Sequence record: NC_135729.1
From: a phage
DNA: 64,000 nucleotides
Reading direction: 5' to 3' (one strand)
The notes under the pieces were generated by a model. That model was not told the origin of the DNA and did not search any database. It worked only from the letters and a program-made list of their open reading frames with translations. Both the position numbers and the translations under genes were made by a program. Positions 1 through 29,302 of this stretch are shown piece by piece (the stretch's first letter is position 1; the number at the start of each line of letters is the position of its first letter).

Positions 1-181
1 AAATGAGAACGGTTATCATTATCATTTAAAAATTTATGCAAAAAATCCTTGCTTTCTTTGTCCTGTGTGATACTATAATAACAAGCCGGGGCAACAGGGG
101 CCGGGAGACAATCACCGGGCCTGCCCGTTATTCTGCAAACGAGAATGATTATCATTCAAAATTCTAAATGAGAACTCCTCG
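1..181. repeat. direct repeats with Fur-box-like cores in non-coding leader
   Basis: AAATGAGAAC at 1-10 and 166-175; GAGAACGGTTATCATTATC (5-23) and GAGAATGATTATCATTCAA (141-159) match the 19-bp Fur-box consensus GATAATGATAATCATTATC at about 15/19 and 14/19 positions (counted by eye); no ORF >=60 aa in 1-760. Confidence 0.4.
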
Positions 182-283
182 CATTTAATAAATTTAATTA
201 GCACGCTAATTACCCTCCGTAACAATTTCCTATAAAACAGTATCCCATAAAATATTCCCGTATAGAAATTTTAAAAATCCATT

Positions 284-449
284 TCTGAAAACGAAAAATC
301 GATTTCGTCCCCAAAAATTTTAGGCCAAGAGCCGGAGCGATTTCCAGAAAATCCGATTCAGAAAACGAAAAACAGATCGAGTACTGAGAAATTTATCGAG
401 AAAAATTTTCAGAAAATTCAATCTTTGAAACGAAAAACAGATCGAGTAC
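284..449. repeat. imperfect ~65-bp tandem repeats (iteron-like)
   Basis: identical 20-mer ACGAAAAACAGATCGAGTAC at 365-384 and 430-449; degenerate third copy CTGAAAACGAAAAATCGATTTCG at 286-308; flanking CAGAAAAT motifs also repeat. Confidence 0.6.
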
Positions 450-627
450 CTGGAAAGCTGCACCGCAACTTCAAGATAGTGGTTGGATTATTGCTATAAA
501 AGGTCAAGGGTAAGTGGAGGAAGTTCTAGTAGCGAGATGTAAGCATGTGCGGGAAATCTATAATGGTGGTCTGGAATATGGTGCAAACGGTAGGATGAGT
601 GATTCAGCTTGTCGCGCCTACTCTGAA

Positions 628-721
628 AAATCCATTTTAGTTTTCGATCCATTTTCTGATTTTCTAAGGATTTTAAAATATCCTGGCAGGTAAAATATCA
701 AAAGGAGGAAATCCATTTTAG
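628..721. repeat. direct repeats AAATCCATTTTAG
   Basis: AAATCCATTTTAG at 628-640 and 709-721; related GATCCATTTTCTG at 646-658 and AAAATCCATTTCTG near 274-287. Confidence 0.5.
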
Positions 722-760
722 AAATCCTCCTGATCTCTGGCAACCTGATAACTTAAAATA

Positions 761-1093
761 TCAGGCTCCCAGTGTGTTCTTTCCTTTGTACAACCGTAAG
801 GGTATAGTTTTTGTAACAGTCCATCTCCCCAGCCCTTCCCAGTTCCAGTTGTAGGCATGGTACCCGGTTACGCATGCACTGCTAGAGTGGTCATAGGCAT
901 AAGAGAACACTATACGCACCAAATGGAACCAGTCTTTCCACGGTTGTGGTCCGTAAGCTTTTCTCCAACACCGACACAAACTAAATGTCTCAAGAATAGG
1001 CAGGATAACAAATCCATACACCGCCACCAGAATAGCCAGCGCAATGATTGTCAGGAATACATACCCTGCAGTTGAAACGATGATCTCTGTCAT
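761..1093 (-). CDS. hypothetical membrane protein
   Basis: 110-aa ORF; hydrophobic stretch YVFLTIIALAILVAVYGFVILPIL suggests one transmembrane helix; same strand as neighbours. Confidence 0.35.
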   Translation of the reverse strand: MTEIIVSTAGYVFLTIIALAILVAVYGFVILPILETFSLCRCWRKAYGPQPWKDWFHLVRIVFSYAYDHSSSACVTGYHAYNWNWEGLGRWTVTKTIPLRLYKGKNTLGA

Positions 1094-1293
1094 TTGTCGT
1101 CCCCTTTCTTACGGATATAGATGTGAGAACCTGCCTGTATATAAATTTCTCGACCATCTTCTGCGAAGATGTGGAATACACGGTCACCTTCGTACTCAAT
1201 ACGAGATATCTTCATAATGGTCTTTCCACCTGGGATACGGATCTCGTCCCCCACAGCGATGTTCCATGCAGATTTAAGCTTAAACATCTGCAC
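1090..1293 (-). CDS. hypothetical protein
   Basis: 67-aa ORF, 4-nt overlap with downstream gene. Confidence 0.3.
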   Translation of the reverse strand: MQMFKLKSAWNIAVGDEIRIPGGKTIMKISRIEYEGDRVFHIFAEDGREIYIQAGSHIYIRKKGDDK

Positions 1294-1480
1294 CCTCCTT
1301 TGGGAACTTGAACTCTGGCATAGCCATATACGCTACAACAGGGTTGTGATCAAAGTAGAACTGACCGTTAATTATCCCTGTTTTGTCCACATAGTTACCA
1401 GATCCTGCAAGAACAACCTCGCAAGCTCCGAAATCTACATTGCCATCCTCATCAGCCATGGCTACGGATATACTTTCCAA
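1280..1480 (-). CDS. hypothetical protein
   Basis: 66-aa ORF in the minus-strand gene train; competes with plus-strand ORF 1169-1495. Confidence 0.25.
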   Translation of the reverse strand: MESISVAMADEDGNVDFGACEVVLAGSGNYVDKTGIINGQFYFDHNPVVAYMAMPEFKFPKEGADV

Positions 1481-1546
1481 GAGGCATGTTTTTAACGCCG
1501 TCTACAAATGTCCACCCTTTGCTCATACTTTATCTCCTGCGCTTTC

Positions 1547-1879
1547 TTAAGGTAACCAGTAAACAATCTCGCCTTTCAGCTTCATGTCGTTTCCAACATA
1601 AATTTCCCAGCCATCCATCTTAGCAACTGTAGGCCCAAAGTCATCCGCACCCCTTACCTCTTTCCAGGCTCCGTAGTCAGGTTGCCAGATATAGAATCCA
1701 CCTTCTTTGTCCCATGCTCCGTACACTACGTTTAACAGGTTTCCCATTGCAACAATGGTGGGCCGTGGGAATAATACATCTACAGATGCGCCACAATTTC
1801 GAGTATCTTTTAAGTTGCAATCCCAAAAGATGTCTGCCAGTGTGGCGGCGATAGCTTTACGTCTTTCCAATGTTACCAT
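1547..1879 (-). CDS. hypothetical protein
   Basis: 110-aa ORF, co-oriented with neighbours. Confidence 0.4.
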   Translation of the reverse strand: MVTLERRKAIAATLADIFWDCNLKDTRNCGASVDVLFPRPTIVAMGNLLNVVYGAWDKEGGFYIWQPDYGAWKEVRGADDFGPTVAKMDGWEIYVGNDMKLKGEIVYWLP

Positions 1880-1889
1880 GGCACGATAC

Positions 1890-2081
1890 TCACTTGTTGT
1901 TAATAAGGTCTAAAACTTTCTGTCTTACTTTGTCAAGGTCTGTTGATTCAAAAACTGTGCGATATCCCCAACTTTGCCCATAAGAGTGACTGCAATCCCC
2001 GTAGCACCATTGCTCAATTTGATAGTATTCAAGGAACGGGTGCTGTCTAACTATGATACCATCCCGGTTAAAAATTACCAT
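1890..2081 (-). CDS. hypothetical protein
   Basis: 63-aa ORF. Confidence 0.3.
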   Translation of the reverse strand: MVIFNRDGIIVRQHPFLEYYQIEQWCYGDCSHSYGQSWGYRTVFESTDLDKVRQKVLDLINNK

Positions 2082-2144
2082 AATACATCACTCTCTGTTA
2101 GTTTATGCATATATTATACACTGCAGTTTTCAGATGTCAATCTT

Positions 2145-2396
2145 TTACAGGTTACTCCAGTATAATCGGCATTTACATTTTGGGCAATGAGGTTCTTTTA
2201 TGTAATAACCATCAGTCTTTGGAACACTTTTTGGTGCAGTTTTAAGATTGTACCTGGTAAAACATCGGAAGCAGGTCACCTCTCCAACCTGTTGATCGTT
2301 GATCCACTCACCAGAGTAAAGCTCTTTCTTGTTTCTCATAATTCTCTCCCAAATCCTCTGCAATCTTATACCAAAATCTCCAGCCAGAAAGCACAC
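2145..2396 (-). CDS. hypothetical protein, possible Zn-ribbon
   Basis: CFRCF ... CPKCKC cysteine pairs; true start probably internal (MRNKKELY). Confidence 0.35.
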   Translation of the reverse strand: MCFLAGDFGIRLQRIWERIMRNKKELYSGEWINDQQVGEVTCFRCFTRYNLKTAPKSVPKTDGYYIKEPHCPKCKCRLYWSNL

Positions 2397-2590
2397 GGGA
2401 ACACTTTGAGGATTGAATCTTTACTTGGCTCGGAAGTTCTTTTTCCGTATGGTAGGTAGAAATACCCTCCTGCAGATTCGAATATAGCTCCTTCGGTTGT
2501 ATCTACCACAGCAAGAATTAAGATTCTAGTCTCCACAGTGCTCTCCTCTCTTAGTTGTTGTGGAGACTATATCACCTCAGAAGATGGTCG

Positions 2591-3049
2591 TCAACACTTT
2601 TTGTACTCTACTACAACCACATCAATATCTGTGGTTGCAAGATTAATTACATCTTCTACATGTTCCCACTTTAGACCGCCAATACCGCATCCAATTTTAG
2701 GAATGTAGAACGGCAATGACACACCTTTGAATACCTCGTTGACTCGCTCAAAACCTTTCATGATTGAGAAGTATTCAGCATTGGGCCCTGGGTAGAACTG
2801 GGTATACAGGTTGATTCCATATACGACCCTGTTCTTGGCAAAATGCTCCCAACAAGAAAACATACCCAGCTTGTCCAGATTACCATAGGCAGTCTCTTTG
2901 TCGGCTGCCAGTGCTTGAGGGAACTCACGGGCAATATCTTTCGCTATGCCTGCACCCATTGTATGAAAGCAGTTACAACCGTGGATCAGGTGACCAGCAC
3001 CGCTCTTAAAAAGGGAGATTAAATCTCCCGCTACAGTATCAATAATCAC
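2591..3049 (-). CDS. macro-domain protein, TARG1/OARD1-like (putative ADP-ribosyl hydrolase)
   Basis: GDLISLF...HLIHGCNCFHTMGAGIAKDIAREFP and LPFYIPKIGCGIGGLKWEHVEDVI align by eye with the TARG1 signatures GDLFSCP...CRMGAGIA...FKKKFG and LSMPRIGCGLDRLQWENV; length 152 aa fits a single macro fold. Confidence 0.7.
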   Translation of the reverse strand: MIIDTVAGDLISLFKSGAGHLIHGCNCFHTMGAGIAKDIAREFPQALAADKETAYGNLDKLGMFSCWEHFAKNRVVYGINLYTQFYPGPNAEYFSIMKGFERVNEVFKGVSLPFYIPKIGCGIGGLKWEHVEDVINLATTDIDVVVVEYKKC

Positions 3050-10546: not shown

Positions 10547-12970
10547 ATGGTAATAGATAATACGACGGACACCTTCATCGTACCACCCACGCTTCACCAT
10601 TTGGTGGTGCATGAGTATCCCAACTAAGTCACACAGCGATGCACCACCATTCTGTTGGTATGCATTAAGTAAAGAGTGTTTAGATCGGGTCCAGATAGCA
10701 TGACCATCAAAAGAGTAGATAAACTTCTTACCCGTTGCTTCCCAGAATTTCTCCAGATCCTCTTTACGCCCCTTAAGACCAGGGTTGGCATCCCAAAGTG
10801 CATCGATTACCCTTTGTCCCAACTCTGGAGAGATGTCCAGCATATCTGCAACTTTATCTTTTTGTGCCCCGTACATAACCCCATACGTGATAGGTTTACC
10901 GTCGTTACGAGACACCTCTCTGCCTGCTACTTTTGTATATGCCTCAGCATTGTTTTGGTGTGCGTCCCCGTTACTTACAACATCATAATACAAGCCGTTG
11001 TCGAACTCAAAGGCACCCCAAGCCCCGATAAGCTGCTCTAAGTTGGACCCGTCAATACCGATCTCAAAGTATCCTGGAGGAACACCCCACAGACTGCGCA
11101 TCTCTTTACCCATAACCACTTTAGGAGATGGTTTAGGCATGTTTGCACAAATACTGTGTTTCTGTCGGGAAGTGTTTGTTAATCCAGAACTTTTAGCAGG
11201 AAGCTTATGGTCAATCTTCAAACGTGGGTGATTAAGAAGACCAGTATCAACCTTATCCTCCTTGATTGGATCAAGGACCGATCTGCGGTTTCGCAATGAT
11301 AACCACAAGACGATATCTTTAGCCATCTCTCCGTTCAATTTTTCAAGATTTGGGCATAGGTGTCCAAACGTATCTTTCAGCTGCGGAGAAGTAATAAGTG
11401 CTCTGGCTTTTCTACGTATTTTCCCGAATACTTCCTTTTTAATCCTTTCGGAGTTAGGAAAGCTTCGGAACTTGTGCACGGTTGTCTGAAACTTAGCATC
11501 AGTTTTGTTCCAGAAGTTGATAATTAGGTCACAATACTCTGACTCTAAAAGCTCGTCCATGTATGCATATACTCGTGCATCAACATCTGCATCAGGTAGA
11601 GCTTTCTTCTTGCTGTCTTTAGTTACATCCTTAGTTCTCCACATTGTCGGAAGCCAACCAGCACTGATCAGGTATCGCTTAATGTCGTCCTGATTGCTGA
11701 TTTTCATAGGTATCTTGCAGTCCGGCATTCGCTTCTGCTGTAGATCACTTATTGCCTGATCCATCAGCTCTTTAGGTAAAGGTTGTGGTGTGGAAGTGCC
11801 CTTAATATAGCCTCTCAAGAAATCAGCCATCTTATCAGGGTCTTTGCAGCCCATCTCTTCACACCATTTTATCCCCATCTTACTGACATCTCCTGTGGAG
11901 GTAAATGCTCGCTTAGGCGGGGCTTTGAACTCTAAAGCGCTCATGTCTACAGGATAGCCAAGCTTATCTTTTAACCATTTCCAACCATTATTGGAGATTG
12001 TCCCATCTTGGTTAAACGGCTTTTCAGGGAACTTGGGCCGCTGAGACATTGACAGCTCTTTTAAAGGTAGTTGTGGTTCAACACGATCAGCTATTTCTTT
12101 CATCCACGCATCACAACGGTCACGTAAAGCAATAGCTCCATCTATGTCAAAATACACACCCTGACGGGCCTGCAGCTCCATCAGGAAGTGCTGCAGCATG
12201 CCTCGGCATAGTGCGTTCTTCCAGGTGATCTTCTTGAACCCTTTCGGCTTCTCTTTGGCAGGATCGTACATAAAGTTCTGCATGTCAGACTTGCCGTAGA
12301 ATACACCTTTTGATTCCGCTACCAGTTCTTTCCAGAGCAGCTCCTGGATGATAACGTCCTCAAATACACGATCCACATACTTCCACAACGGAAGATCGCG
12401 CCAGTCATCAATTTGAACTTTCTGGTTACCAAGAGCATAGCCCCATGCCATAAGGCCGTGAGGACCAACAGGCTGCATTTTCTTAGTGACCGGGTTGAAT
12501 ACAGAGTCCGGACAACCTTTTGGTAAAGGGCGATCAGGCCACAAGATTCGACTCATCGCCAACGTATCAAACAGGTTAACCTGGTGGTCGTTGATAGTCC
12601 CCATGCATTTAGGATCACGGAACATGTCAAAATGAATACCGGATAATCTTTCCATCAGCATAAAGTCATAACTGTAGCAGTTATGGCAGTTCAAAGCTGT
12701 TGGTGACCAGTCAGAATTGCCTGTAAGCCAACCTTCCAACTCCGAAAAATCTGCTATGCGAACTTCAAAATCTTTATAAAGAGTTTTCTTTGCCAGAATG
12801 AAGTTCTTAGCCTTTTCTATATCCTCCTCGGAGTAGTGTGTGCGGTCATTTAGAGGAAGGAACAGCATAAAACGGTTCTTATTCAGCTCTTTAAACAGAC
12901 CGCAGTGATAATAAAGATCTGGGTCTTCCAGCAAACCGGATGACTCAAAATCGAAAGACCACATACTCAT
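10547..12970 (-). CDS. DNA polymerase, family A with 3'-5' exonuclease domain, exon 1
   Basis: Exo I FDFESSG; motif A DGSNLEQ; motif B RNDGKPITYGVMYGAQ; LNAYQQNGGASLCDL resembles Klenow INAPMQGTAADIIK; ORF stops at ..IIYYH-K-stop exactly where motif C (HDE) is expected (stop at 10541-10543 is intronic). Confidence 0.85.
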
Positions 12971-27820: not shown

Positions 27821-29302
27821 ATGGCCCCTTCTGGAGTTTTAATGGATAGCAGAAGTTCAGAAATCGTTGCCTCACAGAAAGATGATGCCCTGAGAATGTT
27901 GCAGGCTGCACGTATGTATCTCCTTGAAAAGCTGCCGTTTTATGGCACACTGCTGTCAGGGTTGCAGTTCGTAGAAAACCACACATGGTGCTCCACCATG
28001 GCAACCGACCATAAACGCATCTATTACAGCCCTGAGTTCATTATGGGATTGGCTGATGAACGCAAGGCTATTCTTAAGGCCTCTCTAACTGACAAGCAGT
28101 TTGAGATGGCTGAGGTTTTCTATTCCCCCAAATCTGTGAAAGAGGTGGCCTTTCTTCTGTCGCATGAGGTGGGGCATATTATCTGTGATCACCTGGTCCG
28201 TGGTAAAAGCTTTGAGCCGGAACTGTTCAATATTGCTTGTGATCACGTTATCAACACAGGCCTTGTGGTTGACTTTAGCAAACCTCCTTGTGTTTTCTTC
28301 TCGAAGGGGAAAAGCACTACGTTCGTGAAAGGTAAGCCTTTTGGCTTCTTAGCCAGCTGCTACTGCGACATGAAGTTTCATGGATGGATTGCTGAGAACG
28401 TTTATGCAGTTCTTGATAAGCAAAGAGATCAGAATAACGGTAAAAGTAAGAGCGGTAAAGGTGAGAACTCTCAAGAAGATAAGCGACAAACCGATGATCA
28501 CATGAGTGGTAACGGTGGCACCAGTGATGATCTTGGAAAGGCTATGGGGTATGATCAGCCACAACCTGTAATCAGTCAATCTGATAAAGATCAGGCCATG
28601 CAGGACTCTGGTGACATGCTGGAGGCAGCAATGCAAGCTTCCGGAGGCCGTTGCCCTGAGGCGGTTCGTGAGTTTGTCAAGAATAGAGGTAAGCCTGTAA
28701 TTAATTATATAGACATCATCAAGCAACGCATGTTGTCTAAACGAAAGGCTGAACTGACCTACAGAAAACCTGGTCGCCGATCTGGGTCTTTGACCAGCAC
28801 AATGCGAAAAGTTGGGGCTATAAACAAGAACCAGCACGTTATTGTTCCTGGTCGTAATCCGGAAAACACCATAGATATTGTGGTAGCTTTAGACGTTTCT
28901 GGCTCGATCTCTCAAAGAACTTTAAAGAAAATGTTCAATGAAATCACCGGATTGTGCAATCTGTATAAAGAGTTTAAGGTTACAATGTTCTGTTGGTCAA
29001 CTGAAGTCGGAGAGGTTAAAGTATACACTCGCGGCAACATAGACGAGATGATCAACTATGAGGTACACTCAACATGGGGCACAACAGCTGCTTGCGTGTT
29101 CGAGTATCTGGATGCCAACATACCGAATGCAAAAGATGTCATCGTCCTGACCGACCTATACTTTGAGCATAACTTTGAACAAAAGGCTGTTGACAACAAG
29201 TGGAAAAAGTACGATACTTTATGGGTTCTCACCGAAGGGTATAATAAAAATTATATCCCTAGCTTTGGGAAAACTGTGGAATTAATCGAGTACGCTAAGT
29301 AA
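27821..29302 (+). CDS. putative metallopeptidase (HExxH) fused to vWA domain (COG3864/DUF2201-like, MoxR partner type)
   Basis: HExxH LLSHEVGHIICDH; vWA MIDAS motif VVALDVSGSIS (DxSxS); 493 aa. Confidence 0.7.
   Translation: MAPSGVLMDSRSSEIVASQKDDALRMLQAARMYLLEKLPFYGTLLSGLQFVENHTWCSTMATDHKRIYYSPEFIMGLADERKAILKASLTDKQFEMAEVFYSPKSVKEVAFLLSHEVGHIICDHLVRGKSFEPELFNIACDHVINTGLVVDFSKPPCVFFSKGKSTTFVKGKPFGFLASCYCDMKFHGWIAENVYAVLDKQRDQNNGKSKSGKGENSQEDKRQTDDHMSGNGGTSDDLGKAMGYDQPQPVISQSDKDQAMQDSGDMLEAAMQASGGRCPEAVREFVKNRGKPVINYIDIIKQRMLSKRKAELTYRKPGRRSGSLTSTMRKVGAINKNQHVIVPGRNPENTIDIVVALDVSGSISQRTLKKMFNEITGLCNLYKEFKVTMFCWSTEVGEVKVYTRGNIDEMINYEVHSTWGTTAACVFEYLDANIPNAKDVIVLTDLYFEHNFEQKAVDNKWKKYDTLWVLTEGYNKNYIPSFGKTVELIEYAK

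Follow-up and report, generated by a model that had tools for sequence, protein, structure and literature searches.

Fur operators normally overlap the -35/-10 region of a promoter. In E. coli, the fhuA and ryhB operators are each bound by Fur in gel shifts. Overlapping sites shifted by 6 bp, which place two dimers on opposite faces, are the rule for natural Fur clusters (PMC2189734). The region analysed here, positions 1-760 of a 64,000-nt stretch of phage DNA (NC_135729.1; "the window"), belongs to a non-coding island whose boxes resemble the E. coli operators of ryhB, fhuA and fecI. The core sequence GCAAACGAGAATGATTATC matches the fhuA operator at 17/19 and the ryhB operator at 16/19 positions (the identities of box B, described below), sites overlap at a 6-bp shift, and the island scores at least as high as natural operators. 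Unlike the E. coli operators, the island boxes lie off any recognisable -35/-10 element, after a promoter-proximal hairpin, and are arrayed every 29 bp; in local alignments to the ryhB, fhuA and fecI promoters, similarity ends at the box.

To our knowledge, the Fur boxes so far known from phage DNA all act as switches of temperate-phage cargo genes. The stx1 promoter is one Fur-regulated cargo case. Another is the sitABCD operon carried by lambdoid phages (PMC6969025). In these cases, as in the island, a host Fur box is located on phage DNA, and cargo expression is tied to iron. In contrast to cargo boxes, which sit at the promoters of protein-coding genes, the island boxes lie in a gene-free region of strictly virulent phages, are conserved across the subfamily and are coupled to a hairpin RNA. 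In the literature collection searched, we found no paper on the island or on Fur boxes in virulent phages.

Two further groups of phage elements invite comparison. Promoter-proximal RNA elements include the antitermination sites put of HK022 and nut of lambda, and antisense RNAs are represented by lambda OOP and P22 sar. Like these, the island places a conserved structured RNA directly behind its host-type early promoters, each genome having two or three paralogues, some of them antisense to their neighbours; unlike them, its hairpin is without sequence or Rfam similarity, only one imperfect hairpin is supported, and an antitermination or antisense role is putative. The T7 primary origin combines tandem promoters with an A/T-rich region, and T4 oriE an early transcript with iterons. 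The island likewise has tandem promoters followed by A/T-rich DNA and direct repeats near replication genes, although its promoters are host-type, its repeats are 65-75-bp composite units and a Fur array is interposed.

The window derives from an rV5-like phage of E. coli (Vequintavirus), and its edge at position 1 is an arbitrary cut within a non-coding island of ~1.1 kb among leftward early genes. Positions 1-760 are the right-hand two thirds of this island, a conserved, single-copy feature of the rV5-like early region; in A51.2, a near-identical phage, the gap without genes reaches ~330 bp further left (L001 4669-5760). The label "leader" given to the stretch in the sequence-only reading is thus misplaced, as the island is embedded in a block of early genes that run leftward and position 1 is arbitrary. 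We consider the island best explained as tandem promoter-hairpin-operator units under the control of host Fur, beside a single-copy iteron array that is possibly a replication origin, a reading based on sequence to which we assign a probability of roughly 0.4. Its features in 1-760 are:

2-29 (no strand assigned): Fur-type operator A, overlapping 19-mers 5-23 and 11-29; 16/19 to consensus; 17.6 and 13.1 bits
27-48 (+): A/T-rich tract AAAAATTTATGCAAAAAATCC, UP-element-like by inferred function, adjoining the -35 hexamer on its upstream side
49-76 (+): candidate promoter P1+, TTGCTT 49-54, 16-nt spacer, TG 68-69, TACTAT 71-76
77-132 (+): GC-rich hairpin of Unit 1, covariance-model match of 68.6 bits
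133-159 (no strand assigned): Fur-type operator B, overlapping 19-mers 135-153 and 141-159; 15.8 and 14.8 bits
167-185 (no strand assigned): degenerate third box AATGAGAACTCCTCGCATT, 29 bp from box B (start to start), matching the phage box consensus at 14/19
266-317 (+): iteron unit 1, degenerate, with inverted repeat ACGAAA-N6-TTTCGT; 65% identical to the reference unit
340-391 (+): iteron unit 2, AAATCCGATTCAG then GAAAAACAGATCGAGTAC, including a GATC site
405-456 (+): iteron unit 3, with an exact 22-nt match to unit 2, 65 bp away
457-625 (no strand assigned): fast-evolving spacer, with many substitutions and 1-2-nt indels among close relatives, both flanks being nearly invariant
626-702 (no strand assigned): near-invariant repeat block, AAATCCATTTTAG at 628, GATCCATTTTCTG at 647-659, TAAAATATC at 674 and 691
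703-745 (-): terminator-like hairpin, AGGAGGA...TCCTCCT at 703-731, then TTTTGATATTTT on the - strand

With a 60-aa ORF threshold, 1-760 is indeed the sole ORF-free stretch of at least 250 bp in the 64 kb. Small ORFs are annotated in the gap in some GenBank records (rv5_gp192-194, A512_73 and A512_74), yet indels of 1-2 nt disrupt them between close relatives of the same genus, or the other aligned genera lack them. The same applies to minus-strand ORFs of 37 and 92 aa over the boxes, and the annotated + strand ORF 514/547-693 is ruled out by the indels in the spacer. There are no tRNAs in the window, and Rfam scans of window positions 1-3000 and seven related loci returned nothing meaningful at E up to 1. 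Capture of a host promoter was rejected, since a search of the island element against 5,426 E. coli genomes gave zero matches at E up to 1 and alignment to host promoters is confined to the box. A plasmid replicon origin was likewise discarded, the sole match being a mislabelled phage genome.

A total of 248 phage records match the region, and the island layout is found again in six lineages of Vequintavirinae and in Phapecoctavirus. The shared layout comprises a strong sigma-70-type promoter on the strand opposite the flanking genes, a GC-rich hairpin of ~55 nt with loop GAGACAAWCACC, one to four 19-bp palindromes (multiples being exactly 29 bp apart), three direct units of ~65-75 bp with GAAAAACCGATCGAGA in each and, at the right end, a fast-evolving spacer, an invariant repeat block and the terminator of the neighbouring gene. 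In other genera, the alignable part is the hairpin-plus-box core only, at 70-88% identity. The proteins encoded beside the island belong to families of unknown function that differ between genera.

P1+ is oriented against the flanking genes. Conserved in all genera are a -35 TTG, a 16-17-nt spacer and a TAYWWT -10, with a TGn extension in most, and the A/T tract, with TTGAC after it, is shared by the Unit 2 promoter and, in other genera, by the second rightward promoter. P1+ of the window falls under the threshold of a simple promoter scan; its counterpart in locus L011 was flagged. From these sequence features, we regard it as likely that the island promoters are active and give rise to the predicted RNA ends.

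The Unit 1 hairpin is formed by the stems AATAAC/GTTATT (77-82 with 127-132) and GGGCA/TGCCC (89-93 with 122-126), with the conserved loop GAGACAATCACC at 105-116. RNAalifold, run on MAFFT alignments, found no consensus structure on either strand, and the hairpin was assessed with a covariance model, a stated structure and an alignment that had been trimmed. Pairing in the closing stem amounts to 92-93%, two of its pairs being changed on both sides and many being G-U; in the inner helix it is 53-60% in fixed columns. Covariation is modest; its score is exceeded by 3-12 of 500 shuffles. Pairing amounts to 93% in the promoter-sense strand versus about 86% in the other, and the promoter-sense strand has the better folding z-score in all three folds (for Unit 1, -1.15 on the + strand versus -0.20 on the - strand). 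The hairpin matched no Rfam family. As no U-tract follows the stem, UAUUCUGCAAA taking its place, and no terminators are called on the + strand, the hairpin does not qualify as a canonical terminator. In the window, sites that the conserved loop could target are not enriched (11 versus 10.8 expected).

The promoter-to-hairpin order is the same in the island copies and in all second-locus paralogues on the other strand, and the hairpin-to-box spacing is invariant, including in old paralogues that lie on the other strand at a distance of 7-10 kb. This conserved promoter and hairpin, at a fixed distance before each box, were overlooked in the first reading. Operator A is the 3' end of a Unit 2 that lies mostly left of the window and whose promoter and hairpin, just beyond the edge, were read in L001 4906-5000. 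The box is missing from a metagenomic relative (L041) in which promoter, hairpin and iterons are present, and from the third hairpin copy of Vequintavirus; we therefore regard the Fur box as accessory rather than core.

The iteron-like units noticed earlier are real: three are present per genome in every genus, as homologous arrays, and none in the rest of the 137-kb genome. The perfect repeat, described as 20 bp long, is in fact 22 nt (AAACGAAAAACAGATCGAGTAC at 363-384 and 428-449, 65 bp apart), was matched in 0 of 100 shuffles and lies inside 52-nt units (340-391 and 405-456) that are 79% identical; the degenerate third copy was located at 266-317, where a terminator-like match runs on the - strand (318-281). 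Unit 2 has sub-repeats of about 20 bp at 347, 367 and 386. The short repeated motifs are likewise present in 1-760, with AAATCCATTTTAG exact at 628 and 709 and related at 275, 349 and 650, TTAAAATATC exact at 673 and 753, and TAAAATATC in three copies at 674, 691 and 754. The repeat block also carries a late-promoter-like AGGTAAAATA at 688-697 (+), and Certrevirus has AAATATCA triplets at the equivalent place. Directly past the stop of gene 761-1093, the terminator-like hairpin folds at -15.5 kcal/mol on the - strand (z -1.9) versus -10.8 on the + strand (z -0.8), and a promoter-like TTGCCA-17-TAAAAT occupies 743-715 on the - strand.

Such repeats raise the question of whether the island is primarily a replication origin, in which tandem promoters feed an A/T-rich iteron segment and the Fur boxes are accessory or incidental. 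Consistent with this, the single-copy iterons contain sub-repeats of about 20 bp, A-tracts and GATC sites, and the array is kept in every genus, even without a Fur box. The promoters oppose the flanking genes and would thus be dispensable for their expression, and replication genes adjoin the island immediately on the right in the same block, in a phage that has a T7-type primase-helicase and a family-A polymerase. The replication origin of rV5 is, moreover, unknown (PMC3606486). On the other side, no conserved DnaA (TTWTNCACA) or IHF (WATCAANNNNTTR) sites were found across the loci, GATC enrichment is limited to loci with the iteron core CGATCGAG, and no initiator gene was recognised among the annotated neighbours. 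The 65-75-bp unit spacing is also unlike classical iteron arrays of 20-23 bp, skew analysis is uninformative in these genomes, and a second large non-coding region of A51.2 (104-106.5 kb), with repeats of its own (TGTTTACGC about six times), is an equally good candidate for origin or terminus. We therefore consider it possible, if somewhat doubtful, that the iterons function as a replication origin, and unlikely that this is the primary role of the island.

The reading of host Fur control draws on the boxes themselves. Five matches of at least 14/19 to the consensus GATAATGATAATCATTATC fall at three positions only (16/19 at 5-23, 14/19 at 135-153 and 15/19 at 141-159), compared with none above 13/19 in the remainder of the window, and GAATGATTATCATTC at 143-157 is a perfect 7-1-7 palindrome. 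We scored the window with a Fur matrix built from 25 sites of nine K-12 Fur-regulated promoters, in which natural sites reach a median of 11.5 and a maximum of 17.4 bits on leave-one-out scoring. The four best matches in the 64 kb (17.6, 15.8, 14.8 and 13.1 bits) all lie within 1-160, the top score being that of operator A, which was reached by 1 of 1000 dinucleotide shuffles of 1-760; isolated matches of 14-16.5 bits occur elsewhere in the genome. The boxes thus outscore nearly all natural K-12 Fur sites and stand clear of shuffled sequence.

The boxes are also kept across genera, operator B, at its fixed distance from the hairpin, being the segment most conserved among them. On scores and conservation, both outcomes named in the first reading as refutations thus fail. 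Box pairs are offset by 6 bp (5/11 and 135/141) as in natural Fur clusters, and likewise in other genera; the 29-bp start-to-start phasing of the third box is common to their arrays. When base frequencies were compiled from 37 distinct boxes at 17 phage loci, the resulting matrix correlated with the natural-site matrix at r = 0.80 in both expected registers; of the other five registers, the middle one gave 0.40 and the remaining four ~0. Formation of RNA hairpins by the boxes was rejected as an explanation, because the E. coli and Klebsiella versions are asymmetric (GAGAAT/ATTATC) and would mismatch in RNA. The proposal that the 19-mers are Fur boxes hence holds in silico on matrix scores, 6-bp pairs and cross-genus conservation, and we consider it probable that Fur binds them in vivo.

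Alternatively, the palindromes could be operators of a phage-encoded dimeric regulator, for example of an early-to-middle switch, with a convergent likeness to Fur sites. The regular 29-bp array and its fixed coupling to a phage-specific hairpin are atypical of host Fur sites, and the commonest half-site in the phage boxes is TGAGAAT rather than TGATAAT. Nevertheless, the variation between lineages stays within the natural Fur range, and two loci (L042 and L043) carry the exact 7-1-7 Fur consensus TGATAATGATTATCA (20.1 bits). The window encodes no Fur-like protein, and the likeness to the ryhB and fhuA operators is so close that Fur would bind regardless, which makes this explanation improbable.

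Relative to the rightward start sites, the boxes follow one by ~60-85 nt and precede the next by ~55-80 bp. This position outside the -35/-10 region of either promoter is atypical for Fur operators, so that the geometry of repression is conjectural. The sole candidate promoter overlapping a box is a leftward TTGAAT-18-CAGAAT at box B (159-154 and 135-130), which, if Fur-repressed, might under iron shortage drive a small RNA or the early genes downstream. Its layout is fecI-like, with the box following the -35 hexamer at once, TTGAAT is conserved in most genera and the direction is that of the flanking genes. The critical second base of the -10 nonetheless varies (CTGAAT in Mydovirus, CGGAAT in L016), the spacer is 14 rather than 18 nt in the second-locus paralogues, and the downstream genes differ between genera and have strong promoters of their own. 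We regard a leftward promoter of this kind as very improbable.

Boxes on replicating phage DNA might instead act as a decoy that titrates Fur and derepresses host iron uptake for iron-dependent ribonucleotide reductases. Up to four boxes are present per genome, each a pair of overlapping sites of natural-operator strength, and the phage has genes for ribonucleotide reductases of classes Ia and III; but a decoy would have no need of a fixed position after a hairpin and several genera keep a single box, leaving this role highly improbable. Least credible of all is a DNA-transaction signal tied to a genome end, such as a T5-like injection-stop region or a site for packaging. The island does consist of repeat-rich, non-coding DNA and lies 8-13 kb (about 6-9% of genome length) from the region with the 514-bp terminal repeat of the related Klebsiella phage KPP-1 (PMC9862379). 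That repeat (116,316-116,829), however, occupies another non-coding region, 8.3 kb away, and all records place the island internally, against the packaging-site or terminal-repeat-proximal role first suggested; rV5 is described as circularly permuted (PMC3606486), another Vequintavirus is reported to be headful-packaged, and two-step injection is without evidence in these phages.

Returning to tandem units under host Fur, each would run from a sigma-70 promoter directed against the flanking genes through a hairpin RNA of ~55 nt to a Fur operator at a fixed distance. Early in infection, host RNA polymerase would fire from the island promoters and transcribe the hairpin. Iron-loaded Fur would coat the operator array, which adjoins each hairpin on its downstream side and immediately precedes the next rightward promoter, and may thereby decide whether transcription ends at the hairpin or reads on, first through the iterons and from there antisense into early and replication genes. 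Phage early development would in this way be wired to host iron status. The iteron units, as once-per-genome protein-binding sites, would be the best candidate target of island transcription, and possibly an origin. As the phages grow well in iron-replete laboratory media, Fur is not a simple off-switch for an essential function. A bolder and rather unlikely extension is that virulent rV5-like phages use iron-loaded Fur as a developmental checkpoint, in which operator array and hairpin RNA gate early transcription between a short RNA and read-through across the iterons and antisense into the replication genes.

Iron status in laboratory media is very different from that in the gut or in infected tissue. 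If Fur control of the island is true, the lytic development of virulent, therapy-relevant phages listens to host iron status, in a subfamily whose hosts include E. coli, Salmonella, Klebsiella, Cronobacter, Pectobacterium, Erwinia and Serratia; should the checkpoint hold as well, iron supply would tune either the replication of phage DNA or the expression of early genes, and the hairpin would represent a previously undescribed RNA family. The analysis defines an RNA element that has no Rfam family, and the island provides a concrete candidate for the replication origin and control region of these phages.

The first 1.1 kb of the window matches 248 phage records, led by the Escherichia phage phiWec191 (99.9% identity) and followed by A51.2 and two 'Campylobacter phage' records (99.8%), and over the first 20 kb its identity to many Vequintavirus (rV5-like) phages is 94-97%. 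The 'Campylobacter phage' records (GenBank MG0656xx; MG065662 bears the tag UNVERIFIED) share 92-99.8% identity with E. coli Vequintaviruses, and a 137.5-kb 'E. coli plasmid' in PLSDB (CP057073.1), with the length of a Vequintavirus genome, matches the query region at 95% identity. Because window position 1 corresponds to position 117,340 of 137,300 in the A51.2 record, within a long run of small leftward genes, it is an arbitrary cut rather than a genome end. Real genes are absent from 4669-5760 of L001, the A51.2 locus (~1.09 kb), and the right-hand 760 bp of this gap lie in the window. Vequintaviruses carry a 60-115-bp insertion/deletion polymorphism at L001 4841, which is 159 bp to the left of where the window starts and just upstream of the Unit 2 promoter. 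The rV5 map shows merely a 'non-coding' box here (PMC3606486), and the literature searched yielded no description of the island, nor of Fur boxes in virulent phages.

All features that the sequence-only reading had listed in 1-760 were found. At a 60-aa threshold this is the sole ORF-free stretch of at least 250 bp; the noted 20-bp repeat is a 22-nt exact repeat (363-384 and 428-449) within 52-nt units, with the degenerate third copy at 266-317; and the short motifs AAATCCATTTTAG (628, 709) and TAAAATATC (674, 691, 754) are present, their exact forms being absent from the rest of the window. At 688-697 (+), AGGTAAAATA corresponds with one mismatch to the rV5 'late' motif TggTAaAAtA and points antisense into the gene at 761-1093; this motif is enriched, with 17 copies in the window vs 5.6 expected, most of which precede late genes on the - strand. 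Among eight Vequintaviruses, 457-625 shows many substitutions and 1-2-nt indels, and the flanking segments are almost invariant. The 1-2-nt indels, and indels in the hairpin region that are not multiples of three in the comparison across genera, led us to reject the small ORFs annotated here in some records. The region is clearly functional.

Consensus Fur matches of at least 14/19 occur at only three positions in the 64 kb (5-23, 135-153 and 141-159). We built a Fur position weight matrix from 25 sites in nine E. coli K-12 promoter regions under Fur control (fepA-fes, fepD-entS, fepB-entC, fhuA, fecI, fecA, cirA, tonB and ryhB); in leave-one-out scoring these natural sites have a median of 11.5 bits and reach at most 17.4 bits, and the 99.99th percentile over the window is 11.1 bits. 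The highest-scoring matches in the window are as follows:

5-23, box A, best match, 17.6 bits
135-153, box B, second-best match, 15.8 bits
141-159, box B, third-best match, 14.8 bits
11-29, box A, fourth-best match, 13.1 bits

Of 1000 dinucleotide-preserving shuffles of 1-760, a single one reached the best score, and the matches are paired at a 6-bp shift, the arrangement of natural Fur clusters (PMC2189734). Box B, GCAAACGAGAATGATTATC, is identical at 17/19 positions to the fhuA operator and at 16/19 to the ryhB operator, for both of which Fur binding has been shown (PMC2189734). The likeness to the fhuA, ryhB and fecI host promoters stops at the box edge and E. coli genomes searched at E up to 1 gave no match to the element; we therefore reject a captured host promoter and regard the box as a functional look-alike. 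No Fur homologue is encoded in the window, and the remaining 77 kb of A51.2 contains isolated matrix matches only (16.5, 15.0 and 14.0 bits and a few at 12-13), with no cluster. Other motifs in the island also resemble protein sites. TTAGCACGCTAA at 198-209, within the palindrome AATTAGCACGCTAATT, is unique in the window and confined to Vequintavirus; we take it to match the SlyA/RovA consensus at 11/12 positions. Between iteron units 2 and 3, TCGATAAATT (390-399, - strand) occurs once in the 64 kb and matches the H-NS high-affinity motif exactly.

In other genera the flanks are unalignable and a core corresponding to about 45-190 is still matched at 70-88% identity, always within unannotated DNA; it was found in Phapecoctavirus, Mydovirus, Seunavirus, Certrevirus, Henunavirus and in Serratia and Pantoea phages. 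With this conservation and the score statistics, the Fur-box-like sites of the sequence-only reading are strongly supported as putative operators. Across eight fetched loci and additional ones from IMG/VR, the core always lies in a gap of 0.7-1.4 kb whose position between leftward genes is constant, the protein families of the flanking genes differ between genera, and the order of features on the + strand is identical in all loci compared:

1, small rightward gene, some genera only (two families, 55-64% identical between genera)
2, promoter and ~100-nt GC-rich conserved block, most genera
3, P1+ (49-76 in the window), TTGnnn-16/17-(TGn)TAYWWT
4, GC-rich hairpin with loop GAGACAAWCACC
5, ATTCTGCAAA
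6, palindromes AATGAGAAT-N-ATTCTCATT (one to four), starting exactly 29 bp apart if several
7, second rightward promoter, some genera
8, three direct units (63-82 bp) with the core GAAAAACCGATCGAGA in each
9, variable segment
10, AAATATCA-type repeats, then the neighbouring gene's terminator

The small rightward genes, of ~88-aa and ~60-aa families (L004 2075-2341, L006 1028-1294, L005 2097-2279, L008 1066-1257), have no counterpart in the window. The ~100-nt block, ACGCCACCCCACGGCGAAAAGGCGGGGCTAAC...GGAAGGTGGATCGCCGGTAG, lies upstream of the conserved hairpin in loci L004-L011 (e.g., L009 1287-1440), could form a CCCC/GGGG pseudoknot with one compensatory change in L007, and has no match in Rfam; E. 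coli Vequintaviruses carry a second hairpin unit in its place.

When 37 distinct boxes, drawn from 17 phage loci, are compiled into a frequency matrix, its correlation with the natural Fur matrix is r = 0.80 in both expected registers; of the other five, four give r ~0 and the middle one 0.40. Most of the difference between lineages falls on the symmetric fourth position of the half-sites (TGAGAAT vs TGATAAT), both forms being present in natural Fur sites, and two loci carry an exact 7-1-7 consensus box (20.1 bits). The frequent asymmetric version GAGAAT...ATTATC argues for protein binding to the box as DNA and against an RNA hairpin. Fur-type box arrays, TGAGAATGATTCTCA, also occur in non-coding DNA of unrelated IMG/VR phage contigs (L014 13589-13631, L027 5203-5240), the former also encoding an IscU-like iron-sulfur scaffold protein (10622-11029, -).

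E. coli Vequintaviruses carry two tandem promoter-hairpin-box units:

Unit 2, TTGACA-17-CACAAT, hairpin with GGGAGACAACCACCGG, box A; the window includes box A only
Unit 1, window 49-159

A covariance model built from 16 hairpins added a third copy from the same genome; it lies on the opposite strand, 9.5 kb to the left of the island, and has a promoter (TTGACT-17-TATTCT) before it but no box. This copy (27880-28010, - strand, of L045, a further A51.2 sequence; A51.2 ~107.8 kb) has loop GAGACAATCACC, runs in gene direction, with a further promoter and a gene after it. Second-locus copies were also found in Mydovirus and Henunavirus, where the promoter-to-hairpin order is kept and a box of lower score (8-11 bits) follows ATTCTGG with precisely unchanged spacing. 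The equivalent second-locus copies are:

L024, 4992-5045
L013, 4327-4380
L016, 1192-1245

The constancy of this order, whatever the direction of the neighbouring gene, is the best evidence on transcription and indicates that the hairpin is probably transcribed from its upstream promoter. Support for the hairpin structure is moderate. Its closing stem is 92-93% paired, two pairs are changed on both sides, and many pairs are G-U (A-C mismatches if read on the opposite strand); by our own count from the pair table, pairing is 93% on the promoter-sense strand vs ~86% on the other. Folding z-scores favour the promoter-sense strand in 3/3 comparisons (-1.15 vs -0.20, -2.18 vs -1.48, -2.98 vs -2.14). 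The inner stem is poorly fixed, and no U-tract follows the stem. Just upstream of the -35 hexamer, P1+ and further early promoters of several genera share GTAAAGA-N3-GTAAAGA, by which P1+ can be assigned to a recognisable class of early promoters. This element occurs in Seuna-, Mydo-, Certre- and Phapecoctavirus (L005 2440, L008 1418, L009 1429, L013 718 and 4082, and others) and is absent from the window; as it fits GTAAA-N5-GTAAA, we take it to resemble a CpxR box.

The sequence-only reading had called the architecture typical of replication origins, packaging sites or regulatory regions near terminal repeats. A transcription-activated replication origin fits the island, in that the iterons are single-copy and conserved and adjoin promoters serving no gene, and the rV5 origin is still unmapped in the literature. 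However, the loci share no conserved DnaA or IHF sites, no initiator was recognised, and a rival 2.5-kb non-coding region with its own repeats lies at 104-106.5 kb. This second region (L045 24168-26645; A51.2 104,067-106,544), where converging gene blocks meet, has about six TGTTTACGC-type repeats and one 14-bit Fur-matrix match, and is the counterpart of the KPP-1 region with a 514-bp terminal repeat (PMC9862379). A leftward promoter overlapping box B (TTGAAT-18-CAGAAT) has a layout like that of the fecI promoter, but the second base of its -10 is not conserved and the spacer is only 14 nt in paralogues, making it improbable. A terminus or packaging role was not borne out, since the region of the KPP-1 terminal-repeat type is 8-13 kb away, rV5 is described as circularly permuted (PMC3606486) and another Vequintavirus as headful-packaged.

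The boxes sit between a hairpin, which they follow directly, and the next rightward promoter, whose A/T tract and -35 hexamer come directly after them; this promoter is P1+ for box A in the window and the second rightward promoter in Seunavirus and Mydovirus. In the metagenomic relative L041 (5400-5900 of a 146.8-kb Seunavirus-like contig), promoter, hairpin and iterons (four or five, GAAAAAGCTATCGAGACC, lacking GATC) are kept and no Fur site is present, which argues for the box as an accessory to a core made of hairpin and iterons. Fur on the boxes could stop read-through from the upstream promoter and could also impede the next rightward promoter. As our favoured hypothesis, the island comprises Fur-gated early transcription units that would run opposed to the genes and adjoin a candidate origin.
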